UHGV virus genome: UHGV-1550212
DNA: 64,000 nucleotides
Strand: one strand, 5' to 3'
DNA from: a virus
The notes beneath the pieces were generated by a model that had not been told where the DNA came from, ran no database searches, and saw only the letters and a list, made by a program, of their open reading frames with translations. Both the position numbers and the translations under genes were made by a program. Positions 1 through 58,240 of this stretch are shown here, piece by piece. Within the stretch, counting starts at the first letter, position 1; the number at the start of each line of letters is the position of its first letter.

Positions 1-646
1 CAATTACATCGTGGCCAATACCTGACATGGGCTCTGGCTCAGGTTCCGGTTCAGGTTCCGGTTCAGGTTCCGGTTCAGGCTCCGGTTCAGGTTCCGGTTC
101 AGGTTCCGGTTCAGGTTCCGGTTCCGGTTCCGGTTCAGGTTCCGGTTCAGGTTCCGGCTTGGGCTTTGATGAATAGTTAAACATCTTGTGAATCCATTTG
201 CACCACCATTTGTGACATGCATGTGCGCCATCATGATAATACGCTTGCAGCTCCATTGGAATTGCATGATATGCTTTGTCATGTGACATACCTTTGAATA
301 TTCGCAAGTACACATAGCACAAGCAATATGCAATGTAGTACATAAGCGGTGATGCAAGCAGCCACCACCAGCTAAGCACATTGCATGCTGCAAGCACAAT
401 AAGTACAAGCAACGTCGCAAGTGTTACAAAGATGAATTGCTTTGCATGCACAGCTTCATGCTTCAAGGTCTCAGAGTATCTGCTAAGTGTGTCATCATAT
501 GACTTATCACTTCTTATGAAGCACATTGCACACAACGACATTGCATAATAATGTGAAAATGGAATGCATGGCTGGTCGATGACAAGCATTGGTCCAGCAA
601 ACCACAGTCGCCACTGAGATTTATTTGGCAGTGTTGCAGTTTTCAT
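1..646 (-). CDS. HExxH metallopeptidase-like membrane protein with C-terminal (Glu-Pro)n linker; partial, 3' end beyond window
   Basis: ATG at 646..644 (minus), frame open to position 1, so absent from ORF track. Translation [19 protein letters not shown]...[24 protein letters not shown] (HEAVH = HExxH, then hydrophobic segments), ending in ~20 EP dipeptides. Confidence 0.55.
31..158 (-). repeat. Tandem GGTTCC/GGTTCA hexamer array (~21 units) encoding alternating Glu-Pro
   Basis: Direct reading; period 6/12 nt. The track ORF 4..420 (NLNRNL...) is the wrong frame of this array. Confidence 0.9.
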
Positions 647-3704: not shown

Positions 3705-6700
3705 TTAGCCACGAATCAAGTCAACCAAGCGTTGCTGTTCAGGAGTCAATGAAGACTTTCCGCTGCCATCAATGTTTTCGTTAACGAAACCGACTGGCTG
3801 CTTAGTCGAATATGACTTGATTGCAGCCCAGTTACGTGAACGATAGAATGCTGCGACATCTGACTCATTTACGAAAGTGCGAACTGCTGCCTGAGTAGCA
3901 ATCAATGACTTCTGTTCAGGAGTCAAGCTTTCATAAATGTACTTGTATGCTGTTGGCATATGCTTCAGATACAATGGTGTATGGTCAATTGGCTGCAGGT
4001 TCTCATCCAAGACTGCTACACCAGCAGCATCATAGCGAGTTGCAAGCTGCTTTGTTTGACGACGCAATGCAGCAATTTCATGCTTGATGCTTGTCAAGCA
4101 TTCATCAGTTGCTTGTGCGCCAAGATATGTGCGAAGCATATCAGACAGCATCTTCTGATTTGCATCGGTCAAATCACCTGCAACTTCAATGCCAGTCAGC
4201 TGGCCATCTTTGCTGATGACTACAGAAATTGTAGAACCGTCGCGTTCAACTGTGCGGAAGTCAAAGTCATCGTATGACTTATCCTTAAGGACAGCTTCAC
4301 GAATATTGTCATCTACGCCTTCATTGACCATGCTCATGCATTCCTCAACATCTACGTCAAGTCCAAGCTCTTCTGCAGTTTCAGCAATCTTTTCTGCAAG
4401 CTGAGCTTTATTCTCAACTTTGTCAAGGTCTGCTGCATCTGATACAGCATCGACAAGTTCATCTGCCTGTGCACGAGTAATCGTTGAAGCATCAACAAGG
4501 CCATCAATGATTTGCTCTACATCTGCAGGTGTCGGCTTGTTGTCTTCTGCTGCTTCATTGATAAACTTGGCAGTCTTTGGCTTGTAGCTAAGCTTGCCCT
4601 CATTGACCATCTCATCCTGCAATTGTGCAGCGATGTATGCAATTAGCAATGACTTGTTGGCTTCAAGTTCATCGACTGCTTCAGCAGACTTTTGAGCTTT
4701 GATGAGTTCATCGTAAGCTGCTGCAACTTTGTCATCCATCGTAGACTTGTCAGGGTCAATGTTTTTGATGCATGTCTTGACAATATCATCCTGATAGAAC
4801 TTGTCAATGATTGATTTGTCTGTGTCAGAGTATGTTGCATATAACTTGTCTGCGACAATTGATTCATTGACAATCTTGCCTGGCTCAGATGCAGGAACAA
4901 GAGTCCACTTACCATCAACTTCTGCAACAATGCCTGAAGTCGATTCGCCATAAGTGACTGTTAGACGAGTGCCTGCTTCATTGTTGTCAATTGTGTTGAC
5001 GACTGCTTCGAATTCATTACCATCAGCGTCATAGATTTTGATGCTGTCACCGACAGCAGCTTCATCTACTGGTGCTTCGAAGAACTCTTTGACAAAGTTC
5101 TGAACATCAACGGGCAGACTGTCATATGGCTGTGATGCATAGTACTCTGAGTCAGCATCAAGGTAATTCTTTGAAAGCAGCCAAGCTTTTCGAGTAGCAA
5201 CATCTGCAGCATTCCAAGCATCGACTGACTCATCGCAGTCATCGACAAGTGCAAGATACTCATGGTCTTTCTTGTCATCAAAACGAAGAGTAATCTTTTG
5301 TTCGGGCTTGCCAGCAGGCCAAACTTCGACTTCAATTTCTGTAGTGCCTGCAACATTTTTGACTGTGCCTACAACAATCTTGTCGCCTTTGTTGATGCCA
5401 TTAGACATGTCGTATGGTGCTTCAATAGATTCATCTGTCGACTGAGCTCGAATTGCTGCAGCAATAGCATTACGAGATTCATTGTCGAACATCTCCCATG
5501 TAGCATTCGCAGCATCTTCTACACCAATCTTGTCTTTGCCAACCTGCTCAATCAACTGATTGCGGTCAGCTACTGAAGCATTGTACCACCAGTCTGCAGC
5601 AGTGTCAGATGCTTCATTGACAAATGCATTGAGCAATGCAGTCTGAACGTTATCAGGCAACTTGTCAAAGTCAACAAGCTCTACGTCATCTGCAATATTT
5701 GCTTGCTTTGCTGTTGCTTTACGGCCATCTGCATCAGACTTATTCCAGTCATCAATGAATGCCTGTTCAGCAGCAGATTCATCAAGCGCTTTGACAGTTT
5801 CATATCGACCGTCATACAGCATGTACTTATCGCCTTCTTTGATGGCTACAGACTCCTTGCCATTGTACTTGAATGACACTTTGTCACCATTGAAGCCGGT
5901 CAATTCAGCTGTGATTTTATCGCCATTCTTGTCATACACTTCAACTGTCTGCTCTTCATCAATGTTCAAGTGCTTCTTGAGTGCATCTACAAGTTCTTTG
6001 CCAAGAGCGTCTTCATTGTCATGGGCTTGCTGGAAGCAATCTTCATCTGACTTGTCAGGCTGAACAGCTTTCAATGCTGTTGCCCGATTAAGCATTGACA
6101 TCGTGCCCCAGATTGACATGAAGCTTTTGCCCTCATTGTCTTGTGCTTCGGCTTCGTCAATTGCATCAATGTCTTTCTCAAGCATTGCATGATGAGCAAT
6201 GTCGATGCCAGACCATTTCGTCTTTGCATTATATGGCAAACCAATATGCTTCGACAAAATTGACTGACGTTGGTCATCTGTGAATGAATCCCAAGCTTCG
6301 CCAAGTGTTGCATGCTTTGCTTCATCAGCAGCAAATTCTGTTTCAATCTTAAGTTTGTGGTCCTTGTCAATCAGTTGCCACTTGGCATTTGGACGATAGA
6401 ACTCAGACAATGACAGCTTGTCAAGAATGACTTTGCGTTCGTCATCTGACAATTCGTCCCACTTGTTGTCAGCAGATTCATCGATGTTGACGAGTTCTTT
6501 CTCAATGAGATTCTTGTCAAGCATTGCATCAATGATTGGCTGCTGGGCTTCTGCTGGAATGTCTTTGAACGACTTAATTGCAATGACAGCGTCTTTGTCA
6601 TCAACTTTAGCAGCTTCAACAATTTCTGTCTTCACTTCATCAGTCAAAGCGCCCCAAGCAGCATCGAGATAATCAAAGTTGAGAGCTTCATCACATTCAA

Positions 6701-7820
6701 CAATGCCATACTGCTTTGCAATGTCATTGTGCTTGTCAAGATTGCTGTTGAGTTCAGCTTCAATTGCTGCTTTGATGTCATCAATTGACTTATCTTCAAC
6801 TTCAAGCTCAAGAGCTTTTGCAAGTTCAGTCAATGCTGCATCATCAAGCTTGCTAATGTCATAAGGCTTAGCATCTTCATTTGTGAAGTCAATGCCAAGC
6901 AAAGACATTGCTTGCTTCTTGTTTTCTTCTGAGAGTGCATCGAATGCAGTTGCAAGACCGACATCGGTGTAGTCGCACCCAACTTCGTCAAGTAATGCTT
7001 CGACTTTCTGGATGTTTTCTACGCCAACTTCGTTAGCATCAGCATTGTTGTATGCCTCAACAAAACGTGATTGGTTTGTCATGGTAGTGAAATCTTCTAT
7101 TGATTCGTTTATGAGTTGCTGTTTGAGTGCATCCAATGATGCTGAGCCAATCAATGCATCAGGGAATAGCTTCTGCAACATACCTGTACGTGCAAGCTCA
7201 ATCAATTGGAGCATCAATGAGTTTGGCGAGTCTTCGTCATCTACAGATTCACAAATGAGAGTGTCTTTTGATTCATTAACTGAACCGACAAGATTGAACT
7301 CTGCATTCGAAAAGCCTGGCTGTGCAACCAAATCAAATGTCACGATTTTGAGAAGCTGAACTCTGCCAGTAGTTGGATTGACTACGCCAAGGGCGCGACT
7401 TGAAATGAACAATGGCGAACCTGCTGTAACAATTGCCCATGCAATGCGACCTGCAGGCGTATCAAGAATTGTAATGTAGCCTTCAAAACGTCGTTTTTCA
7501 GGATTCCATTCAATACTGTCCAATCTGTGGCTTACGTTTCCATAACGTACAGTACGTCGCTTAACATGTTCAAGTTCGCCAAGAAGTCGCTTTGCTTTAA
7601 TTGCAGGTTGCAATGCCTGTACTTGAGCAAAGTAATTCTCAAAGTCATACGTGCGCCCATTTTCGTTTTTCTGGTCCATGTATGCATACACGCCAAAAAG
7701 ACGACCAAGTGCGCCGCTTGGCACATGAGAATCTTCTGCTTCAACTACAAACTGACAATCTGCGCGGCTTTCAAGCATAAGTGAGGCTTCCCTGCCTTTG
7801 TACTTATATGACTTTGCCAT
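3705..7820 (-). CDS. Prohead core protease-like N-terminal domain (T4 gp21-like, ~210 aa) fused to ~1160-aa highly acidic low-complexity region (scaffold/internal-protein-like)
   Basis: First ATG at 7820 (MAKSYKYK). N-terminus ...NGRTYDFENYF...LLGELEHV...GYITILDTPAGRIA...FISSRALG matches prohead protease motifs as recalled; remainder is Asp/Glu-rich throughout. Confidence 0.6.
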   Translation of the reverse strand: MAKSYKYKGREASLMLESRADCQFVVEAEDSHVPSGALGRLFGVYAYMDQKNENGRTYDFENYFAQVQALQPAIKAKRLLGELEHVKRRTVRYGNVSHRLDSIEWNPEKRRFEGYITILDTPAGRIAWAIVTAGSPLFISSRALGVVNPTTGRVQLLKIVTFDLVAQPGFSNAEFNLVGSVNESKDTLICESVDDEDSPNSLMLQLIELARTGMLQKLFPDALIGSASLDALKQQLINESIEDFTTMTNQSRFVEAYNNADANEVGVENIQKVEALLDEVGCDYTDVGLATAFDALSEENKKQAMSLLGIDFTNEDAKPYDISKLDDAALTELAKALELEVEDKSIDDIKAAIEAELNSNLDKHNDIAKQYGIVECDEALNFDYLDAAWGALTDEVKTEIVEAAKVDDKDAVIAIKSFKDIPAEAQQPIIDAMLDKNLIEKELVNIDESADNKWDELSDDERKVILDKLSLSEFYRPNAKWQLIDKDHKLKIETEFAADEAKHATLGEAWDSFTDDQRQSILSKHIGLPYNAKTKWSGIDIAHHAMLEKDIDAIDEAEAQDNEGKSFMSIWGTMSMLNRATALKAVQPDKSDEDCFQQAHDNEDALGKELVDALKKHLNIDEEQTVEVYDKNGDKITAELTGFNGDKVSFKYNGKESVAIKEGDKYMLYDGRYETVKALDESAAEQAFIDDWNKSDADGRKATAKQANIADDVELVDFDKLPDNVQTALLNAFVNEASDTAADWWYNASVADRNQLIEQVGKDKIGVEDAANATWEMFDNESRNAIAAAIRAQSTDESIEAPYDMSNGINKGDKIVVGTVKNVAGTTEIEVEVWPAGKPEQKITLRFDDKKDHEYLALVDDCDESVDAWNAADVATRKAWLLSKNYLDADSEYYASQPYDSLPVDVQNFVKEFFEAPVDEAAVGDSIKIYDADGNEFEAVVNTIDNNEAGTRLTVTYGESTSGIVAEVDGKWTLVPASEPGKIVNESIVADKLYATYSDTDKSIIDKFYQDDIVKTCIKNIDPDKSTMDDKVAAAYDELIKAQKSAEAVDELEANKSLLIAYIAAQLQDEMVNEGKLSYKPKTAKFINEAAEDNKPTPADVEQIIDGLVDASTITRAQADELVDAVSDAADLDKVENKAQLAEKIAETAEELGLDVDVEECMSMVNEGVDDNIREAVLKDKSYDDFDFRTVERDGSTISVVISKDGQLTGIEVAGDLTDANQKMLSDMLRTYLGAQATDECLTSIKHEIAALRRQTKQLATRYDAAGVAVLDENLQPIDHTPLYLKHMPTAYKYIYESLTPEQKSLIATQAAVRTFVNESDVAAFYRSRNWAAIKSYSTKQPVGFVNENIDGSGKSSLTPEQQRLVDLIRG

Positions 7821-7898
7821 ATTTGAATTGTGTTTGAAAGTTTGCAAATTTTTGTTGTTATTGATTATATATGCAAGGCAGACTTGTGTGTTGAAAAA

Positions 7899-7927
7899 TT
7901 GCAAAATTTCAGTTATGTGTACATAAC
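7899..7927. promoter_or_regulatory. Divergent intergenic region with TTGCAA box and inverted repeat GTTATGT-GT-ACATAAC
   Basis: Between minus gene start 7820 and plus RuvC-like start 7954; 7-bp arms around a TGTACA core at 7912-7927. Confidence 0.3.
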
Positions 7928-8788: not shown

Positions 8789-9049
8789 ATGGTGCACATT
8801 GATGGCTTACATGCAGCAGGTCAATATGCATATCTTGGCGTATCATTGTCACAGACAGGCGTCATATACCATGCAAAGTGGACATCTGGTTCTGGTACAG
8901 GACCTCAAGGCCCATTTAAGCCAGGCACAATTATCAGATTTGGCTTGCACAATTCAGTGTCATCAACTACAACGCCTCGTGCAATGCAAGCAATAGAAGT
9001 TGACGCAAAGCAATTTGGGCAAAATTATGCTATATTGTTTCAGCTGTAG
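8789..9049 (+). CDS. Hypothetical protein (86 aa)
   Basis: First in-frame ATG of track ORF 8741..9049 (GTG start); downstream of RuvC-like gene on same strand, followed by hairpin at 9094. Confidence 0.3.
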   Translation: MVHIDGLHAAGQYAYLGVSLSQTGVIYHAKWTSGSGTGPQGPFKPGTIIRFGLHNSVSSTTTPRAMQAIEVDAKQFGQNYAILFQL

Positions 9050-9093
9050 TATTGATTGCAATGGTATGCACTCGTTAACATAAGCATCAAAAA

Positions 9094-9120
9094 ACTCCGA
9101 CAGAATTGTTCTGTCGGAGT
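9094..9120. terminator. Bidirectional intrinsic terminator between convergent genes
   Basis: ACTCCGACAGAA-TTG-TTCTGTCGGAGT, 12-bp perfect stem, A-run upstream and T-rich downstream. Confidence 0.65.
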
Positions 9121-9167
9121 TTGCTGTTGTAAACAGCTGTCTTAATGTTTTGCAATCTATAGCAAAT

Positions 9168-10961
9168 TCAATTTTGTGTTGCAACGTCATCAGTCTTGTT
9201 ATCAACTGGCTCATCGTCGACATGTGTATCAACATCAATGCCAGAAGCTGCAGCAAGTGAAACATCATTAGCGACGCCTTGTTGTTCAAGTTGTTGTTGA
9301 GCTTGCTTTGTTTGAATTGCGACAAGTCTTGCAGCTTCCATTGCAAGCTTAAGATTCTCTTGAAGTTCGATATCAAGCTGTTCAGCATTAGCTTGCATGT
9401 CTTCTTTGCTTAAGCCAAGATACTTGTTGATAAGCCAATTGCTTGAGAAGAATGGGCGTTCAGTATCAGACATGTTAAGTGAACGAACAAGTGAACTGCG
9501 AATGTCTTCGATTGTATGAATACGCTTCTGAAGCAATGTGAGCTCCATTTGCGTCTGGAAATGATTGTATCTATTGAATTTGAGTTTTAGCGCATTCAAA
9601 ACTTCATTGTCGCCAATGTAGTTATTGTTTTTGATGCACATCAAAACATACACAGGCTTCAATATGATTGCAATGCCAAATCTACGCATCAAAGCTGAAA
9701 TAAAGATTGCAAAACGACGCTCATCACGCTGAATTGACTCTTCAGAAACATTCCACATGCCACCGCCATCATCGAATCTGCTTAGAGGCAGCTTTGACAG
9801 ACGTTGTAAGTTATTGCGGAAATATGTGACTGCTGAAGTATCAGATAAGTCAGGCATGCCTGTGCCAATTGTTTGAATGTTGGGTTTGCCTGCATTAGTG
9901 TCAGCCATCCAAAATTCGCTATTGAAAGGCACAGATGCTTCGCCATTAACTTGGAGTTCGCCGGTTTGATTGTCGAATTCAATTTTTTCGTGGTACTTAT
10001 TCATTGCTTTACGCAATGTTTCCTGTGCAGCAGCTTTCAGTTTACCGCCAGTAGGAATTGTGATAAGTGAACGAAAACGAGAAGCTGTCGTAGCATATGC
10101 AATGCGACTTCGCTCCAAAATCCTGAGCAAGTTGAATGCACGAACAAGACGCTCAAAATATGACATAGACCCAACCATGTCATCGTTCCACTGCAAATAT
10201 GCTACTTGCGAATCAAGCAAGTTGATTTTTTCTGAGTTGTTAGACACAAATGCTGGTGCTTTGACATCAAACATTGTATGTGTCTTGAACATATCTTGTT
10301 GAGACTTATCATACTGCCAGAAGAACATTTCACCCTTCTTCATAGGCGTCAATGCAAATGCATTCAACTTTTTGATGCCAACAATATCAGTCGGCTCATC
10401 TGCATTATCAAACACAATCTCATAGCCAAGTCTGCCTCGTACAAGATATTCACGCAACAATGCTCTAACATCTTGTTTGCGAGGTTCAGAGTTCAACCCA
10501 TTGAATGCATACATCAAATAGACTTGCTTGAATGCATCCATAAAGTCATCTTTGATTGTCTGCTTTGCTGTGTCGTCTATCTCAAGTTTATCGATGTCAC
10601 AAAAATCAGGCTCGCAAAAGAAATTACTATCGGAATTGAACACGATGCACTCATCAATCATGCGGTCAAGAATGTCGTCGAGTTCCGGTTCTGCACTTAA
10701 GATGTCATATTTTTTGGCTCGAAGATAACTTGTCAATCCAAAAAGATTCTTTTTAGGTGACTCTTTCTGATTGAACACGTCATCAGTAGACAACACAACA
10801 ACTTCTTGGTCATTGATGTTATGCTCACCTGTATATGCTGCTTTCTCCAAATCTGCATCAGACCCAGACTTGTGCACATTCAATTGCTGCAATGGACTGT
10901 CTTTCGGAATTGAGCGTAATGCATCAGTTCCCAGATATGTTCGTTTGGTCTTTTTAGCCAT
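9168..10961 (-). CDS. Portal-like protein (T4 gp20-like), 597 aa
   Basis: ATG at 10961; ...SEFWMADTNAGKP...YFRNNLQRLSKLPLSRFDD resembles portal core motif (VPLSRI region) as recalled. Confidence 0.55.
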   Translation of the reverse strand: MAKKTKRTYLGTDALRSIPKDSPLQQLNVHKSGSDADLEKAAYTGEHNINDQEVVVLSTDDVFNQKESPKKNLFGLTSYLRAKKYDILSAEPELDDILDRMIDECIVFNSDSNFFCEPDFCDIDKLEIDDTAKQTIKDDFMDAFKQVYLMYAFNGLNSEPRKQDVRALLREYLVRGRLGYEIVFDNADEPTDIVGIKKLNAFALTPMKKGEMFFWQYDKSQQDMFKTHTMFDVKAPAFVSNNSEKINLLDSQVAYLQWNDDMVGSMSYFERLVRAFNLLRILERSRIAYATTASRFRSLITIPTGGKLKAAAQETLRKAMNKYHEKIEFDNQTGELQVNGEASVPFNSEFWMADTNAGKPNIQTIGTGMPDLSDTSAVTYFRNNLQRLSKLPLSRFDDGGGMWNVSEESIQRDERRFAIFISALMRRFGIAIILKPVYVLMCIKNNNYIGDNEVLNALKLKFNRYNHFQTQMELTLLQKRIHTIEDIRSSLVRSLNMSDTERPFFSSNWLINKYLGLSKEDMQANAEQLDIELQENLKLAMEAARLVAIQTKQAQQQLEQQGVANDVSLAAASGIDVDTHVDDEPVDNKTDDVATQN

Positions 10962-10981
10962 TTTTGTATTGCTTTGAATAT

Positions 10982-12220
10982 CTATACACGTCTTGTCAAT
11001 TTGACATGACCGCAGTCATCTGCAAGCAGTTTAACATGACCGCAGTCATCTGCAAGCAGTTTAACATGACCGCAGTCATAAACTTTGACGAAGCCTGCAT
11101 CAATCATAGTTTGCTCATCATGATTGCAGTCAAGCACATGTGTATGAGTTTTCATATTGTACCAATGCAAGCCGATGTAAAAGTCAGTCTTGTGATATGC
11201 GTCAGTATATAATCGTGGGTCATCTATAGACAAATCAAGTTCGACGCAGTCAGCAGTCTGCAGTTGTTCTGTGTCAGTTAGCAATGATTTGACAAGCTTG
11301 ACTACAGCATCAAATGACATCCAATCAAATACAGTGATGCATCTATAGCCATGTTGCATAGCTGTGCAACATTTGTCAAAATGCGTAGTTGATGCAATTG
11401 GCTTGTTGACTGTAGAACGACCAGTAGCAAAATCAAATGCAAATGTGCTGTTATGCGTAAATGACGGATTGACATCAATTAGCAAATTGTCATATCGCAA
11501 ATCAAATGCGTAGCAATCTACGTCATGTTCATATTCAAAATCAACACCAGTATGCTCAAGTAGCATATCATGTAACAAGACGTTTGGCTTTGTAATGATT
11601 TTGCCATTTGCAAGTCTGCACTTCTGAGTTAAACAATGCCAAGGCACGCCATATCGTTCAAGTGTAGTGTTGCTAATCTTCTGCAAATTGCCAAAACCGC
11701 TGCCATAGCGTAATTGCTTTGTGACTGTTTGCTGTGCAACATTACCATTAGCATGACCAAACTTGTTGATGTTTGTTTGCTTGCGCTTAGCATTTGCAGT
11801 TGCAATATCAACAGATTCAAGTGACTCAAGAAATTTTGACATGTCGCCAAGCCCATTGCCATATAGTTGACGTTTAGTGTCAACAACTTTTGTCATGTTC
11901 CAGTGCTTGTAGCCATATCGAGCTTCTTTTGTCGCAAATGCTTTGTCATAGTTGCCAAAGCCTGCATGACCATATCGTTCAACTTTTGTTGCAGCAATTT
12001 TGTCTGAGACTTCTTTAAGCTGATGTTTGTATTCAACGCCAAACTTGCGCAAATTTGATATGCGAATGTTGAACACTCGTTTGACTTTTGTATGCGTAGA
12101 GCCTTTGTCAAGCTTTGCATATGGAATTTGTGCAAGTGCAGCGTCTCTTTCATCTTCAAGCTCTCTTATTCGAGCTTCAAGTGCATCACCAGCCAAAACT
12201 TCTATGCGTATAGTCTGCAT
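10982..12220 (-). CDS. Repeat/nuclease-like protein: coiled-coil N-terminus, 6-7 degenerate TK-x-(E/A)RYG repeats, C-terminal LLIDVNP..THNS domain; candidate free-standing homing endonuclease
   Basis: 412 aa; GDALEARIRELEDERD, repeated ...TKVERYG...TKEARYG...RQLYG...TLERYG; paralog of 16405..17604; C-terminal 30 aa is a triplicated decapeptide. Confidence 0.6.
   Translation of the reverse strand: MQTIRIEVLAGDALEARIRELEDERDAALAQIPYAKLDKGSTHTKVKRVFNIRISNLRKFGVEYKHQLKEVSDKIAATKVERYGHAGFGNYDKAFATKEARYGYKHWNMTKVVDTKRQLYGNGLGDMSKFLESLESVDIATANAKRKQTNINKFGHANGNVAQQTVTKQLRYGSGFGNLQKISNTTLERYGVPWHCLTQKCRLANGKIITKPNVLLHDMLLEHTGVDFEYEHDVDCYAFDLRYDNLLIDVNPSFTHNSTFAFDFATGRSTVNKPIASTTHFDKCCTAMQHGYRCITVFDWMSFDAVVKLVKSLLTDTEQLQTADCVELDLSIDDPRLYTDAYHKTDFYIGLHWYNMKTHTHVLDCNHDEQTMIDAGFVKVYDCGHVKLLADDCGHVKLLADDCGHVKLTRRV
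11004..11079 (-). repeat. Perfect 30-bp tandem repeat x2.5 at the 3' end of CDS 10982..12220
   Basis: Unit ACATGACCGCAGTCATCTGCAAGCAGTTTA; encodes DDCGHVKLLA x3; each unit carries inverted repeat ATGAC-CGCA-GTCAT. Confidence 0.9.
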
Positions 12221-12279
12221 TGCAATTTGTTGTCAAATCGCGAACTTCATATGTTGTCATTGACTCATTCATAGTCGCA

Positions 12280-13026
12280 TCAAATCATTCTGTTATCACT
12301 AACTGCAAAGTTGATATTGTTGTCTTTCAGATATTGCATGTATCGCTGAAAAATCTGGTCAGCTGTCAGTTTTTCATAATGATTCGATGGAATGAAGATT
12401 GCTTTAGACCAATCTTCATATTTGAACTCAATCAAGCCTGTCATTCGTGGTGGCAAATATGAACGAAATGCGAATGCTGCGCCATACTTTGTGACAAGTG
12501 AGCCAACTTGCTGCCATGTCATATGCACTGCAGTTTGTTCAGAACGATACATCTCGCCTTTGTATTTAGACGCAAATGCTTTGAAGACAGTCTCAATGAC
12601 AAGAAAACGAACTTCAAGAGGCAAGTGGTGCAAGTTTACACCCATGCTGACTACTGAGCCGTCCTTTGCAATATAATACGACAATGACAAAATTAACGGC
12701 GCGCAGTCGTACCAATCAAGTACATCTGCATGCTTTGGATTGTCATACACAAACATGTACAATTTCCCAGGTTCCATGTACTTTCTGCGAATCTGCACAT
12801 CAGGATTCGTAGCATATGATTTGAACCATGCAGCAGCTTCTCTACCACCGTTTGGCATTTTGTACCATGGATTGCTTCGAATTTCTTTGCCAAGGTCATA
12901 TTGACCGGACTTTACCAAACGATTGAATAATCGTTGTGCTGCAGTCAATATTGAACGTCCTACTGACTTCGCTTTGTCAATAAAAGACGTTTTTGCTTGT
13001 GTATCTAATGAATTAAACTTGGGCAT
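12280..13026 (-). CDS. Hypothetical protein (248 aa)
   Basis: Track ORF 12280..13041 trimmed to ATG (MPKFNSL). Confidence 0.6.
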   Translation of the reverse strand: MPKFNSLDTQAKTSFIDKAKSVGRSILTAAQRLFNRLVKSGQYDLGKEIRSNPWYKMPNGGREAAAWFKSYATNPDVQIRRKYMEPGKLYMFVYDNPKHADVLDWYDCAPLILSLSYYIAKDGSVVSMGVNLHHLPLEVRFLVIETVFKAFASKYKGEMYRSEQTAVHMTWQQVGSLVTKYGAAFAFRSYLPPRMTGLIEFKYEDWSKAIFIPSNHYEKLTADQIFQRYMQYLKDNNINFAVSDNRMI

Positions 13027-13044
13027 ATCTTTATGCAGCAATTA

Positions 13045-13191
13045 TTATCGTTTCGGCTTTGTGACTACATGCCAAGCATTGCATTCTTGACACCACACAG
13101 CTCTCTTTGCTTGTTTAGCGTTTAGCACTGCTTGCTTAGCTACTTCTGCATTTGCAGCAATCTTGTCATAGCATTTCTTTGAGCAACTCAT
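13045..13191 (-). CDS. Small Cys-rich protein (48 aa)
   Basis: Internal ATG of ORF 13045..13323 overlapping upstream stop as ATGA; MSCSKKCYDK...CQECNAWH. Confidence 0.4.
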   Translation of the reverse strand: MSCSKKCYDKIAANAEVAKQAVLNAKQAKRAVWCQECNAWHVVTKPKR

Positions 13192-13628
13192 TTGAAGAAT
13201 CGTTCTGTAATGATTTTGAACTTGATATTTTGTTGTTTGCAGTATGCAATGGTGGCATTCCACTTCGCAACATTTTTGCGATATGTTTCTTTCGCATAAT
13301 TTGATGCTGACCGACTTGGACATTGTGTTTCATGCCACGGTTTCACTTCAACGATATATGTAGAATCTGCAGTTTTGAACAAAAAGTCAGGCCAATATGT
13401 ATGAGTTACGCCATCAAGCTCATATACAATTGGCAGAGTCTCAGATGACCAAGCAAGCACTTTTGAACTCATGTCACAAAGCTTGCAAAATCTGAATTCA
13501 AGTGAACTGCGGTATATGATTGTCTTGTCTGTCGCATCTTTGCCTTTGTACTTATCTGGGTTCATACATCTGTAGTAGCCTTGCTTATACGGTCCAGATT
13601 TGTTTGGCTTAAGTTGCTTAATGTTCAT
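13188..13628 (-). CDS. PD-(D/E)xK-type nuclease-like protein
   Basis: ...YWPDFLFKTADSTYIVEVKPWHE (D...E-V-K motif); 146 aa. Confidence 0.5.
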   Translation of the reverse strand: MNIKQLKPNKSGPYKQGYYRCMNPDKYKGKDATDKTIIYRSSLEFRFCKLCDMSSKVLAWSSETLPIVYELDGVTHTYWPDFLFKTADSTYIVEVKPWHETQCPSRSASNYAKETYRKNVAKWNATIAYCKQQNIKFKIITERFFK

Positions 13629-13633
13629 TGCAG

Positions 13634-13879
13634 TCACTCATTGTCAGGTTTGACGTCTTTGCAGCCAAACTTATGAACAGCATATTCAAGACCAAGTCGT
13701 TGCAATTCTGCAAATGTCTTGTCTTGTATGTATTCCTTTGGAAATCTGCCATGCCATTTGCCTATTGTAGGCGCACATTCTGAACACATTCGAGGCTTAT
13801 TTTGTAAACGTGCAGACCAATAATAGCCAAGCGCAGTATTTTCAATTGCGCCACACTTTTCACATACAAATAAAGGCAT
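13634..13879 (-). CDS. Zinc-ribbon protein (81 aa)
   Basis: CEKC...CSEC paired Cys motifs. Confidence 0.5.
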   Translation of the reverse strand: MPLFVCEKCGAIENTALGYYWSARLQNKPRMCSECAPTIGKWHGRFPKEYIQDKTFAELQRLGLEYAVHKFGCKDVKPDNE

Positions 13880-15781: not shown

Positions 15782-16405
15782 TTATGCATTGGCAATTTCA
15801 GATGGCATTCTGAACTTGATGTCATTATACACAAATGTCAATGTGAATGTCATCACGTTCTGGTCTACACGAGTTTTGTCATATGTGAGTTCTGAAATTG
15901 CAGAAAACACGACATCAATGAAGTCGATGCCAAACAATGGTTTCTTTGCACCGCCATATGTCGCTACAAATCTGCAGGGCTGAAAGTAGATAGTTTCGCG
16001 TTTATCGTTAGCGTATCTGAACAAACTCTCTAAGCAACAAAAATAGCTTAAACCACCATTCGTCAATCTGCATGTCACCTGGATTCGCTTATCAAGTGCT
16101 TGATGAATTGTCTTGCTGCCCTTATGAAACTGTGTAATTGACTTCTTCATGCCACTGTCATCAAGAACTTTATTGACATTCTGAGTAACAATTGGCATCG
16201 ATATGCCCATCAATGACACAGACTGAATTGAATCATGCAACAAGTCATTGATGTCATAAATGATTTGTGTTGGTTGTTGCACAAACACTTTATTGTAAGT
16301 ATCAGCAATATCTTGCGGAATCAAATCAATTGGCAAGTCAAAGCGAAACTGGTCTGACCGTGTATCGAGAATGAGCATATTTTTGATAATTTGTTTATGT
16401 ACCAT
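15782..16405 (-). CDS. Hypothetical protein (207 aa)
   Basis: ATG at 16405 overlaps stop of upstream gene (TAATG). Confidence 0.6.
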   Translation of the reverse strand: MVHKQIIKNMLILDTRSDQFRFDLPIDLIPQDIADTYNKVFVQQPTQIIYDINDLLHDSIQSVSLMGISMPIVTQNVNKVLDDSGMKKSITQFHKGSKTIHQALDKRIQVTCRLTNGGLSYFCCLESLFRYANDKRETIYFQPCRFVATYGGAKKPLFGIDFIDVVFSAISELTYDKTRVDQNVMTFTLTFVYNDIKFRMPSEIANA

Positions 16406-17604
16406 TAACTGTCATACGACCAGTGACCACAGTCATACACTGGCACAAATCCAGTGTCAAGCATTTCTTGCTCAATAAAGCCATCATCAAGCAAATGTTC
16501 ACCTGACTTCGTATTGACCCAATGCTTCTTAATTGTGCATTCATCAACCACAAAGGGATTAAGTGCATTGTCAGTGCAATCAATGAACACATTATTCAAA
16601 TGCGCGTCAATGACATGCAGCACAATTTCTGGGTTGTGCCAATCAAATATCATAAGTGGCGTGTAGCCACATACAATTGCAAGTTGTTGCTTCCACCAAT
16701 GATAGTTTGGCTGTTTTGCTTCTGCGGCATTTCGTTTAAAGCCATACACGCTATTATGAGTATGCGTCGGGTTAACGTCAATTAGCAGATTGCCATAATA
16801 CAGGTCATATGATGTTATGCCAACATCATGTTCAAACTCAAAATGCACACCAAGATGTTCTTCAATGTATGATTGCCACCATCTGTTTGGCGCAGATATG
16901 ATTTGCCCATTTGCTTGCATACATTTATTTGTCATGCAAAACCATGGCACACCGTAACGTTCCATACAGGTTTTTGAAATTGCAGCAAGCCATTCATCTT
17001 TGTCTCTATGCGGCCATGCATAACCATAACGCAGACGACATGTTTGTTGAGCTTTAGCAACGATTGGCGCTAAACGTTCACCGTATATTTCACGTTTAGT
17101 TGCGATGGCTTTGCGTGGATTAGTCCATCCAGCATCACCCCATCGCTCAAGCTTCGTTTGCTGAGATTTTTCAACAATCAGTTCAAGATTCTCACCATAT
17201 TTTTGACGACGAGTTTGCATTGCTGCAACATAATCTGTAATGCATCTATGGCCATACAAACGTTCTTTTGTCGCACTATGTGCTTTATCGCCATATGAAC
17301 TGCCGTAGCGTGCAACTTTAGTGGCAATTGTTTGCTTGATGTTGCCTGCTTTAGAACCATAACGAGCTTCTTTAGTTGCTACGCATTTTTGTTTGACTTC
17401 TGCTCTGTTCCAATTATGCTCAACGCCATGTTTACGAAGATGGCCAATTTTCATGTTGTACACGTTTTTGATATGACCATGAGATGTCTTACGTGGTGCA
17501 TATCGTACAAATGGTGTTTCTGCAAGCAACTTATCTCGTTCAGCTTCAAGCTCTTTAATTCGAGCTTCAAGAGCTTCACCAGTCAAATGCTCTACATGTT
17601 TCAT
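16405..17604 (-). CDS. Repeat/nuclease-like protein, paralog of 10982..12220 (399 aa)
   Basis: GEALEARIKELEAERD; repeats ...TKEARYG...TKVARYG...KERLYG...REIYG...RLRYG...MERYG; C-terminus ...NLLIDVNPTHTHNS. Confidence 0.6.
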   Translation of the reverse strand: MKHVEHLTGEALEARIKELEAERDKLLAETPFVRYAPRKTSHGHIKNVYNMKIGHLRKHGVEHNWNRAEVKQKCVATKEARYGSKAGNIKQTIATKVARYGSSYGDKAHSATKERLYGHRCITDYVAAMQTRRQKYGENLELIVEKSQQTKLERWGDAGWTNPRKAIATKREIYGERLAPIVAKAQQTCRLRYGYAWPHRDKDEWLAAISKTCMERYGVPWFCMTNKCMQANGQIISAPNRWWQSYIEEHLGVHFEFEHDVGITSYDLYYGNLLIDVNPTHTHNSVYGFKRNAAEAKQPNYHWWKQQLAIVCGYTPLMIFDWHNPEIVLHVIDAHLNNVFIDCTDNALNPFVVDECTIKKHWVNTKSGEHLLDDGFIEQEMLDTGFVPVYDCGHWSYDS

Positions 17605-27772: not shown

Positions 27773-28307
27773 TTATGACTGCATTCAACAAATAATTGAC
27801 ATGCTTACATGAATGACGATACATAAAGCCTGGGCAATCACAATATGCTTGCATTGATTCAGGATATAACACAAGTACATGTGAATTGCCTCGTGAGCCA
27901 AAGACCTTGTACTTGACTGGCGCTGTTGGCATGCCAATCAAATTGTTAATGTCTTGTGAATGCCTGATATTATGCAGTTGTTTAAGTGAAACCCAGTGTT
28001 CTGCGGCTTCAGTAGCAGACATCAAATCAATGCCAAATGCTTGTTTGTATTGTTGTTTGCAAAACAATTGCCATTTGTGTGCATATACAGAGTTCTTTTG
28101 CAGCATCTCTTTATGCAACAAATACTCTTCAATGTATCTTGGCTGCCAACGAGTTGACCATGACACAAATTCAGGCACAAACTGAATGTCTTCAAGAGTT
28201 GTGCCTGCTGGTACAGAATGCCAAGCATCACCTGTGCATGCATAAGTACCGGTCGTTGTTACAATTATTGCCGGATTACATTTGCCAATGATTTGAATCT
28301 TGTCCAT
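27738..28307 (-). CDS. SWIM zinc-finger protein
   Basis: ...YCDCPGFMYRHSCKHV (CxCxnCxH). Confidence 0.5.
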   Translation of the reverse strand: MDKIQIIGKCNPAIIVTTTGTYACTGDAWHSVPAGTTLEDIQFVPEFVSWSTRWQPRYIEEYLLHKEMLQKNSVYAHKWQLFCKQQYKQAFGIDLMSATEAAEHWVSLKQLHNIRHSQDINNLIGMPTAPVKYKVFGSRGNSHVLVLYPESMQAYCDCPGFMYRHSCKHVNYLLNAVINDKKLEKDCRL

Positions 28308-28350
28308 CTTATTTATGATTTGATGTCTTGTTATATTATTATATGTTGAT

Positions 28351-58164: not shown

Positions 58165-58193
58165 ATTGTACAACATGCAAAATGCATTTGCAT
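58165..58193 (-). promoter_or_regulatory. Sigma70-like promoter (ATGCAA-N17-TACAAT)
   Basis: Direct reading; proximal of a tandem pair. Confidence 0.4.
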
Positions 58194-58211
58194 TTTGATA
58201 CAACATGCATT

Positions 58212-58240
58212 TTGATACAACATATATTGTCATTTTGCAC
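58212..58240 (-). promoter_or_regulatory. Sigma70-like promoter (GTGCAA-N17-TATCAA)
   Basis: Direct reading; distal of tandem pair. Confidence 0.35.

Follow-up and report, generated by a model that had tools for sequence, protein, structure and literature searches.

A perfect 30-nt repeat upstream of a phage portal gene as a probable coding minisatellite of a mobile homing-endonuclease-like gene

Directly upstream of the portal gene of an uncultured phage, a nuclease-like gene ends in a perfect 30-nt tandem repeat, each unit of which carries an inverted repeat. Does this array serve the portal gene or the packaging of the DNA, or does it belong to the gene in which it lies? It was analysed in a stretch of 64,000 nt (UHGV virus genome UHGV-1550212), which is called the window throughout. 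The phage is a T4-distant myovirus of ~175 kb, whose closest cultured portal match is 33% identical. Neither blastn in distant mode with window positions 9000-13000 nor tblastn with the protein of the nuclease gene gave a match in 50,697 phage records.

An earlier note on this DNA had described a 30-bp sequence repeated 2.5 times without mismatch, which is confirmed by a mismatch-free period-30 run of 76 nt, corresponding to 2.53 copies (Table 1). TRF extends the array to 11000-11079 with 2.7 copies and 98% matches. Two instances of the full 30-mer are present in the window and none in 100 dinucleotide-preserving shuffles. The inverted repeat ATGAC-CGCA-GTCAT (plus strand), which the note had assigned to each unit, is indeed present in all three copies. 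The array also lies where it had been placed, at the C-terminus of a repeat/nuclease-like gene just upstream of the portal gene: the minus-strand ORF ends in it, and the portal ATG at 10961 is found 20 nt past the stop codon. On the gene strand, the array reads (T/G)ATGACTGCGGTCATGTTAAACTGCTTGCA, repeated, and its period equals 10 codons in frame. It codes for (Y)DCGHVKLLA-DDCGHVKLLA-DDCGH within the tail peptide YDCGHVKLLA-DDCGHVKLLA-DDCGHVKLTRRV, after which the gene stops. Here, one detail has to be corrected, since DCGHVKL is coded three times and the exact ten residues DDCGHVKLLA, for which three copies had been claimed, only once. Parsed by unit, the tail is YDCGH[VKLLADDCGH][VKLLADDCGH]VKLTRRV; the 10-codon unit [V/A]KLLADDCGH thus directly follows the His codon that closes the YDCGH motif, which is invariant in the family.

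Table 1. Positions of the array, the gene that carries it and the neighbouring features in the window.
Feature	Position	Strand	Basis
T4-like portal gene (gp20 family), directly downstream	9168..10961	-	ORF call and homology
74 nt comprising the last unit's end, last DCGH, VKLTRRV tail with stop, 20-nt spacer and first portal codons; 100% identical to L024 remnant 4937-5010	10952..11025	-	
Putative homing-endonuclease-like gene, 412 aa	10982..12220	-	ORF call, homologues, profiles, predicted structure
Perfect tandem array, 30-nt unit x 2.53	11004..11079	-	direct repeat-run measurement and TRF
Two extra 30-nt units (GACTGCGGTCATGTTAAACTGCTTGCAGAT x2)	11018..11077	-	60-nt indel against L001 (zero extra units); placement ambiguous inside the repeat
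14-nt quasi-palindrome ATGACTGCGGTCAT, proximal copy, coding YDCGH	11066..11079	-	sequence and family alignment
14-nt quasi-palindrome, other copies	11036-11049 and 11006-11019		sequence
Leader and first codons of nuclease gene, also kept in the L024 remnant (4849-4919)	12203..12275	-	sequence comparison
gp2-like DNA end protector gene, directly upstream	12280..13041	-	PF26869 Phage_T4_gp2 in syntenic L001
Second paralogue of the nuclease family, 36% identical, ending YDCGHWSYDS, no extra unit	16405..17604	-	sequence comparison

The protein that carries the array has a coiled coil at its N-terminal end, RYG repeats (DUF7487-like), a putative Vsr-like nuclease domain and, at the C-terminus, a small domain that ends in the YDCGH hairpin. 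A search yielded thirty homologues, the best with an E-value of 1e-252. Its DUF7487 score of 24.8 bits lies below the gathering cut-off of 27 bits, which several homologues exceed (e.g., P0029 with 147 bits and P0003 with 30.7 bits); a literature search on DUF7487 found no papers. On sequence level, no Pfam nuclease family matched the window protein significantly, NCBIfam returned nothing for either of the two window paralogues, and the PHROG 'homing endonuclease' matches were weak (E about 4e-4). In the AlphaFold2 model (pLDDT 88.7), the C-terminal region was matched by Foldseek to the catalytic domain of I-Bth0305I (3r3p) with a probability of 0.99 and a TM of 0.71 (target-normalised), at a weak E of 0.058. 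The family alignment contains a motif (E/D)-(I/V)-N-P-x2-T-H-N, seen as LIEINPTxTHNS in the alignment and as DVNPSFTHNS in the window protein. The spacing of the EDxHD catalytic motif is absent from this alignment, and kinship to the EDxHD family is therefore limited to the fold level. Residues Y381, D382, C383 and G384 are invariant in the family alignment, Cys383 being invariant among the 16 sequences of alignment A1 and conserved to at least 90% among the 31 of A3. The model is confident through the strand HVKLLA (residues 385-390), which is predicted as the last beta-strand and paired with FVKVY, and falls to a mean pLDDT below 50 at roughly residues 395-412. Beyond YDCGH, the family shows hypervariable tails (C, AR, AKS, AVQN, WSYDS, ALLKKIEK and others).

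The locus itself is variable as well. In the more distant relative L025, gp2 adjoins portal without any nuclease gene between them. The ~94% identical genome L024 has retained only a deleted remnant of the nuclease gene, next to a different nuclease gene at the same gp2-portal locus. This remnant starts inside a unit, whose final part it retains as TTGCAGAT-GACTGCGG, and a unit-bearing allele is therefore older than the deletion in L024. Elsewhere, a site filled by a nuclease family member in L007 is empty at ~24720 of the window, a site empty in L026 is filled in L002, L003, L022 and L028, and one relative harbors at least six nuclease paralogues. Members of the family hence display presence/absence polymorphism at precise intergenic sites in otherwise collinear genomes. 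Judged from these comparisons and from the modelled fold, the gene inserted between the gp2-like and portal genes appears to behave as one of the homing-endonuclease-like, free-standing type.

Among alleles that are 92-96% identical, the number of extra units is 0 (most alleles), 1 or 2 (window). Between the window and the syntenic L001, whose proteins share about 93-94% amino acid identity, the difference at the array amounts to exactly 60 nt. In the 90% cluster, of which 15 members are listed, 13 end in YDCGHVKLTRRV, P0043 has a single extra unit, and P0031, the window protein, has two; the units of P0043 and P0053 are known from protein sequence alone. Copy number does not follow allele similarity, and nearly all of the 705 nuclease-family members are without extra units. 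A comparison of copy number in relatives, as proposed in the earlier note, thus revealed variation, as was also the case at two other loci, and the note's reading of perfect identity as a sign of recent expansion stands, because the units are perfect and yet 92-96% identical alleles contain 0 or 1 of them compared to 2 here. High-identity head-to-tail units, a length that is a multiple of three within a homologue-supported ORF and a varying copy number are the properties of a coding minisatellite. A simple duplication of the L001-type sequence is ruled out, since the spacer TAAACTGCTTGCAGAT is missing from the zero-extra-unit allele. The few alleles compared at DNA level would be consistent both with units gained by conversion and with an ancestral state that had them and lost them repeatedly. 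IMG/VR contained no exact match to AAACTGCTTGCAGATGAYTGCGG, and a scan of JGI metagenomes for AAACTGCTTGCAGATGAYTG gave 8 chance matches in unrelated contexts, of which 0 continue with TGCGGNCAT and 0 lie in homologues.

The same 30-nt module recurs at the identical position in two further lineages of paralogous nucleases, which occupy two additional loci of this phage group. L002 and L003, which share 33-34% amino acid identity with the window protein, end in YDCGH[AKLLADDCGH]C, and 28/30 nucleotides of their unit are identical to the window's. Within Y381-H395, identical residues share the codon in 13/14 cases compared to 52% in the gene body, a difference that is only moderately significant (hand binomial p about 0.0015). 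At the third locus, L031 differs from its allele L004 by two inserted units; between these units, 6/6 differences are non-synonymous, including the Gly of the turn. That the phage group is the same follows from the neighbouring sigma-factor gene (97%) and the flanks (92-95%), which are identical to this extent to the window's IMG/VR relative. At the sigma-factor locus, arrays are the majority state. Furthermore, a diverged unit (AKQLTDDCSH or AKQLIDDCNH) has been kept in frame in two lineages, and extra DCGH units are found only in this phage group.

The ends of these genes may point to the site of exchange. In L022 (...GACTGCGGA/CATTGTTAA), L003 and L028, the flank is the same, and the sole difference is the way in which the end of the gene joins it. 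In L003, the distal copy has GGA as in the L022 end and the proximal copy GGT, while in L028 the flank is read in another frame, resulting in a frame-shifted tail. The 3' ends of the nuclease genes meet their flanks at the YDCGH-coding quasi-palindrome, the same spot that is the module site in three paralogous lineages. The earlier suggestion of a recombination signal is right in this sense only, namely that the motif is both the gene-end/flank junction and the module site. A hairpin conserved as DNA is ruled out by the YDCGH codons of the paralogues, all of which vary (TAC/TAT, GAT/GAC, TGT/TGC, GGA/GGT, CAC/CAT). Since one module occupies the homologous codon of at least three paralogues, transfer between paralogues via a conserved coding motif of 12-16 nt is suggested.

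The array is therefore best explained, and probably correctly so, as an in-frame coding minisatellite that ends a mobile homing-endonuclease-like gene, was spread by gene conversion between paralogues, expanded by slippage and is tolerated in a hypervariable tail. Mechanistically, the YDCGH-coding quasi-palindrome (ATGACTGCGGTCAT[GT]), which is common to the paralogues and flanks every unit, may provide the microhomology by which short-patch gene conversion or template switching would move the module from one paralogue to another. The same sequence would represent hairpin-capable direct repeats for replication slippage or unequal recombination, adding or deleting units, and the two perfectly identical units of the window would then be the latest duplication. 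The extra units would lengthen the C-terminal tail and appear to be tolerated and close to neutral, because this tail is hypervariable across the family and of low confidence in the model. A more far-reaching version, to which we give a slim probability, regards the 30-nt module as a self-propagating micro-cassette: being flanked by a 14-mer common to all paralogues, it could copy itself into any of them, and the 14-mer might be recognised or nicked by the Vsr-like nuclease, with the arrays as repair scars.

Against these readings, a role outside the gene has to be weighed. The array could be a cis-acting element for the portal gene, in which the three quasi-palindromes pair into a long helix with a role in stabilising or processing the transcript, or else bind a regulator. 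About 45 nt separate its end from the portal ATG. The 74 nt that extend from the boundary of the last unit into the beginning of the portal gene are 100% conserved in both relatives examined. The array is also predicted to fold into a strong local RNA structure some 20-30 nt ahead of the portal start (RNA MFE of -59.7 kcal/mol vs. -41.8 in shuffles, z = -5.2; DNA folding z = -4.5). However, such a fold arises automatically when a quasi-palindrome is repeated. It is gone in the single-copy allele (z = -0.78), whose portal and upstream sequence are the same, the portal start region is unpaired in the predicted structure, and the hairpin-forming codons vary among paralogues. Most alleles and L024 are without the array and yet identical from the last DCGH through the portal start, and L025 has its portal gene without the nuclease gene upstream. 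This speaks against the protein-binding or regulatory array for the portal gene considered in the earlier note. Its form as an RNA or transcription element fares no better: neither a terminator-like site (G+C-rich hairpin plus U-run) nor a sigma-70-type promoter was found within the array, Rfam gave no match to it at E up to 1, and a T4-type late promoter in or near it is ruled out, as TATAAATA is absent from the entire window. A cis element is thus very improbable. The same low probability is assigned to a recognition site, which might serve packaging (pac) or be the sequence that the Vsr-like nuclease itself cleaves, the array then consisting of repair scars. Such a site would fit the position of the array next to head genes, the gene-to-flank junctions at the motif and the 14-nt quasi-palindrome in the unit, since the specificity of I-Bth0305I, a Vsr-like homing endonuclease, is described as highest for a 14-bp pseudopalindrome (PMC3239194). 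On the contrary, the empty sites (window ~24720 and L026) bear no similarity to the motif, and it would be self-destructive for the nuclease to have its target inside its own gene and the paralogous ones. An essential pac site would be expected to be conserved in close relatives, but most of these are without the extra units and L025 is without the whole gene, which argues against the packaging signal proposed earlier. Overall, the array would be dispensable for both portal expression and packaging.

Two further explanations concern the units themselves. They might be a selected protein module, a DCGH turn plus beta-strand or a Cys-x-His ligand pair, the copy number of which tunes dimerisation, stability, metal binding or specificity. 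Vsr has a structural zinc, and the conservation of Cys383, the modelled pairing of the first HVKLLA, the invariably in-frame and intact units and their recurrence in three paralogous lineages are all in line with this idea. The retention of the diverged unit in two lineages and the predominance of arrays at the sigma-factor locus indicate that extra Cys/His-bearing units may have some selective value. Nevertheless, extra units are missing from the majority of window-lineage alleles and from nearly all members of the family, tails after YDCGH can be as short as one residue, L028 tolerates a frame-shifted tail, the differences between the L031 units extend to the turn Gly, and the extra units have a pLDDT below 50. 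Selection on the module is accordingly improbable, though with a small probability that exceeds that of the other alternatives. An assembly artefact, i.e., a spurious expansion of a short repeat, is unlikely as the source of the array and is given the least weight, close to none. Perfect tandem repeats are prone to mis-assembly, and the separately deposited ENA scaffold L027, 100% identical over 4,239 nt including the array, possibly stems from the same sample, so that both three-copy contigs may have one origin. But with 76-80 nt the array is shorter than a typical read, the two deposited assemblies agree, and the allele with one extra unit as well as the arrays at two other loci come from independent samples and assemblies.

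With the coding minisatellite as the preferred reading, the array resembles other in-frame VNTRs, which arise by slipped-strand mispairing and unequal recombination, in its head-to-tail units of a multiple of three within an ORF, the copy-number difference between near-identical genomes, the identity of the newest copies and the direct repeats flanking the units. In contrast to these, the unit is not limited to one gene but present at the homologous codon of at least three paralogues. Among nucleases, the modelled C-terminal region finds its best meaningful structural counterpart in the catalytic domain of I-Bth0305I, of the EDxHD family, and as described in PMC3239194 this enzyme is likewise multidomain and phage-borne with a separate N-terminal putative DNA-binding region. 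In that description it is intron-encoded with the family motif E-D-x-H-D, whereas the window gene is free-standing and intergenic, and its family, a nuclease by predicted fold, has the motif given above. The free-standing homing endonuclease genes of T4-like and other phages (Seg/Mob type), and the nuclease genes at boundaries of genetic exchange described by Barth, Dunham and Seed 2023 (PMC10055350), are similar in being multi-copy selfish nuclease genes that lie precisely between essential structural genes. Presence/absence and replacement polymorphism between near-identical genomes, repetitive DNA-binding modules and mosaicism between paralogues are further shared features. The fold predicted for the window protein differs, being none of GIY-YIG, HNH or T5orf172. 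A 3'-terminal coding minisatellite common to paralogues, as in the window group, was not found described in the parts of PMC3239194 and PMC10055350 that were available. Finally, the Pfam DUF7487 proteins, some of which carry a fused Mom-like (PF25680) domain, have a [VI]YDCG beta-hairpin at their C-terminal end, and the C-terminal hairpin G[FY]VxVYDCG[HQ] is common to the window family and its longer Mom-domain relatives. The window protein differs from these by the extra DCGH units and by having no full Mom-like domain, with its DUF7487 score below the cut-off.

The conspicuous perfect repeat would thus reflect ordinary repeat dynamics in a selfish gene, which leaves no need to follow it up as a signal for regulation or packaging. 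If the micro-cassette reading were true, the arrays would record a nuclease-on-nuclease conflict of competing selfish genes within one phage population. The locus offers a natural example of how homing-endonuclease-like genes turn over at the gp2-portal junction and two other sites in one phage group, of a 12-16 nt conserved coding motif acting as a recombination junction between paralogues, and of a 10-codon module that has probably spread into at least three of them. It may therefore be of use for studying how mobile nuclease genes recombine and how far their C-termini tolerate change.

The period-30 array at the 3' end of the homing-endonuclease-like gene extends over 76 nt (2.53 copies) without a mismatch. 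It is called by TRF at 11000-11079 with 2.7 copies and 98% matches, and its 30-mer occurs twice in the window in comparison to no occurrence in 100 dinucleotide-preserving shuffles. The perfect 30-bp repeat described in the earlier note is thereby borne out, as is its position at the C-terminus of a nuclease-like gene upstream of the portal gene. In gene-strand orientation, the 3' end reads GTT TAT GAC TGC GGT CAT, twice GTT AAA CTG CTT GCA GAT GAC TGC GGT CAT and finally GTC AAA TTG ACA AGA CGT GTA TAG, so that the protein ends in VYDCGH[VKLLADDCGH][VKLLADDCGH]VKLTRRV. Here, the decapeptide DDCGHVKLLA had been said to be coded three times; DCGHVKL is indeed present three times, the exact decapeptide once. 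Every copy contains the inverted repeat ATGAC-CGCA-GTCAT (plus strand), and the three-copy state is reproduced exactly in a second deposited scaffold (L027). The array is classed as a coding minisatellite carried by a free-standing homing-endonuclease-like gene.

Features of the window: the array, neighbouring genes and other tandem repeats
Feature	Position	Strand	Remarks
Tandem repeat	39-157		12-nt unit TCAGGTTCCGGT, 9.9 copies, 96% matches
Very acidic ORF	3705-7904	minus	1,399 aa; same strand as the portal gene and downstream of it
RuvC-like gene	between acidic ORF and portal gene	plus
T4-like portal gene	9168-10961	minus	ATG at 10961; stop of the nuclease-like ORF 20 nt before it
Nuclease-like gene	10982-12220	minus	412 aa
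Period-30 array	11004-11079		3' end of the nuclease-like ORF
gp2-like DNA end protector gene	12280-13041		just upstream of the nuclease-like gene
gp4-like head-closure gene	13188-13637	minus	PHROG 218; also TnsA-like endonuclease N-terminal domain match, E = 1e-17
Second paralogue of the nuclease family	16405-17604	minus	399 aa, 36% identical; among structural genes, 3' end abuts next gene; ends in YDCGHWSYDS without extra unit
Tandem repeat	28288-28345		27-nt unit, 2.1 copies, 81% matches
Tandem repeat	58189-58223		17-nt unit, 2.1 copies, perfect

Almost all ORFs of at least 180 aa in the window lie on the minus strand, its head genes are T4-like, and the relatives encode their own sigma-70-like factor. 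Translated on the minus strand, which holds most genes, the repeat at 39-157 gives a long stretch of (PE)n; one plus-strand frame gives (GS)n. No ORF of at least 180 aa over it is listed, in a listing that leaves out ORFs open at the left edge of the window.

The copy number, which the earlier note proposed to compare among relatives, is not invariant. Within the 90% cluster of P0001, to which the window protein (P0031) belongs, 13 of the 15 members listed lack extra units, compared with one unit in P0043 and two in the window protein. The window protein shares 95.6% identity with its closest zero-unit alleles and 92.8% with the one-unit allele; therefore, the number of units does not parallel overall allele similarity. 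The syntenic zero-unit allele L001 (~93-94% amino acid identity to the window protein) differs by exactly 60 nt at the array and ends in YDCGHVKLTRRV and the stop.

The window protein consists of an N-terminal coiled-coil-like segment, about six K-x3-T-K-x2-RYG modules and a C-terminal region of ~220 residues. The modules match DUF7487 below threshold (24.8 bits vs. a 27-bit cut-off) and, weakly, PHROG 'homing endonuclease' entries. The C-terminal region was modelled with AlphaFold2 using an alignment of 31 sequences (mean pLDDT 88.7). The best meaningful PDB match of this model is 3r3p, the catalytic domain of the Vsr-like homing endonuclease I-Bth0305I (probability 0.99, target-normalised TM 0.71, weak E = 0.058); the other is the endonuclease-like protein ngo0050 (3hrl). 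The E-D-x-H-D motif of the I-Bth0305I family was not found in the family alignment, where LIEINPTxTHNS is the conserved stretch. Hence, what is claimed is a predicted similarity to the nuclease fold of I-Bth0305I (PMC3239194), and not family membership. Y381, D382, C383 and G384 are invariant in a 16-sequence family alignment, and the final beta-hairpin of the model is formed by FVKVY (377-381) and HVKLLA (385-390).

Filled and empty sites at three places indicate that the gene is mobile, in a phage that is uncultured and whose portal is at most 33% identical to that of any cultured phage (best, Chryseobacterium phage MA9V-2). The IMG/VR contig UViG_3300045988_149023 (175.6 kb, ~94% DNA identity to the window) harbors at least six paralogues. 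An intergenic site at window ~24720 is empty, and at precisely this point a 1.2 kb paralogue (L007, 3001-4200) is inserted in the ~94% IMG/VR relative. The site upstream of the phage sigma-factor gene is empty in the ~94% relative (L026) and filled with divergent nuclease alleles in L002, L003, L022 and L028, an allelic series of four filled states from the same phage group (sigma-factor gene 97%, flanks 92-96% identical). The gp2 and portal genes are adjacent in L025, a more distant phage (portal 59% identical), while in the ~94% relative L024 their junction holds a different 372-aa gene (3737-4855), with a weak TnsA-like/endonuclease I-like C-terminus and an N-terminal Cys cluster, and a deleted remnant of the window-type gene (4849-5010). 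The 5' part of the remnant (4849-4919, leader and first codons) matches window 12275-12203, its last 74 nt (4937-5010) are 100% identical to window 11025-10952, and ~1.18 kb are deleted internally. These 74 nt start with TTGCAGAT-GACTGCGG, with which a unit ends; hence, an allele with units was present before the deletion took place. At a third locus, L031 (3001-4182) and its allele L004 (3001-4128) are 57% identical overall, with strongly different N-terminal halves and nearly identical C-terminal ~100 residues, a mosaic that indicates recombination between paralogues inside the gene. Insertion beside essential genes, replacement, remnants and mosaic paralogues have likewise been reported for phage homing endonuclease genes (PMC10055350).

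A phmmer search against 1.84 billion representatives revealed 705 relatives, among which extra units are limited to this phage group; outside of it, [VI]YDCG is followed by a short and highly variable tail. The one slightly unusual feature is the spread of a single 10-codon module to an equivalent codon position in at least three paralogues. The window protein and that of L003 are ~34% identical overall, and their unit DNA is identical at 28 of 30 positions. For identical residues within Y381-H395, 13 of 14 codons are shared vs. 52% in the gene body (p ~0.0015, binomial, hand-calculated from those counts). Such local identity in DNA points to exchange between paralogues and not to old vertical descent.

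C-terminal ends before the stop (units in square brackets) and gene-to-flank junctions (slash)
Allele	Locus	C-terminal end	Junction
P0010 (L022)	sigma-factor	YDCGHC	...GACTGCGGA/CATTGTTAA
P0009 / P0012 (L002 / L003)	sigma-factor	YDCGH[AKLLADDCGH]C	L003: ...GGTCATG-CTAAACTGCTTGCAGAT-GACTGCGGA/CATTGTTAA
P0053	sigma-factor	YDCGH[AKLLADDCGH][AKLLADDCAH]C
P0046 / P0047	sigma-factor	YDCGH[AKQLTDDCSH][AKLLADDCGH]C
L028	sigma-factor	ALLTKCS, flank read in another frame	...GGTCATG/CATTGTTAACAAAATGTTCATAA
L004	third	YDCGHAR
L031, allele of L004	third	YDCGH[AKQLIDDCNH][AKLLAYDCGH]AR

A simple duplication of the zero-unit sequence was ruled out as origin of the array, since the zero-unit allele lacks the spacer TAAACTGCTTGCAGAT. 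A YDCGH-coding quasi-palindrome of 12-16 nt flanks every unit; it is common to many paralogues with varying synonymous codons, and the junctions at the sigma-factor locus lie exactly at this element. There, the flank provides the last codons of the nuclease alleles, which read HC or ALLTKCS depending on the frame. In L003, the proximal copy has GGT and the distal copy GGA, as at the L022 end; in L031, the Tyr codon found in the resident YDCGHAR end is preserved in the distal copy. The unit would have been installed by motif-seeded recombination or template switching between paralogues, and units would then have been gained or lost by slippage or unequal exchange between the flanking direct repeats, which are able to form single-strand hairpins (DNA z = -4.5). 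The two identical units of the window would represent the latest duplication.

The earlier note also considered a regulatory element for the portal gene and a packaging signal. The array RNA folds strongly (z = -5.2; -59.7 kcal/mol vs. -41.8 in shuffled sequences), owing to pairing between copies 1 and 3 and to self-folding of copy 2. The single-copy allele (L001) lacks this structure (z = -0.78) and yet agrees fully with the window from its last DCGH copy onwards into the portal gene, which argues against portal regulation by the array. The hairpin-forming codons differ among paralogues. No terminator-like or sigma-70-like sites were found within the array, an Rfam search of it gave no match, the whole 64,000-nt window contains no T4 late-promoter consensus TATAAATA, and the empty sites (window ~24720, L026) do not resemble the motif. 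A packaging (pac) signal is improbable, since an essential site of this kind would be expected in most close relatives, which lack the array. As a separate observation, a stretch of 74 nt (10952-11025), which reaches from upstream of the portal gene into its start, is 100% identical between the window and L024, and the part from ~11018, the last DCGH copy, to the portal start is identical in L001 too, with surrounding DNA 91-95% identical; this conservation may reflect either an upstream control region belonging to the portal gene or recent exchange.

A functional role of the added Cys-x-His pairs or beta-strands appears improbable. The tail after YDCGH varies from one to ~11 residues among the paralogues of this phage group, L028 carries a frame-shifted version, the two L031 units differ by six changes, each of them non-synonymous, which also affect the Gly of the turn, and mean pLDDT is below 50 over roughly residues 395-412 of the model, which comprise the remaining part of the extra units plus the tail. 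This points to a weakly constrained tail, in which the extra units are regarded as tolerated and nearly neutral.
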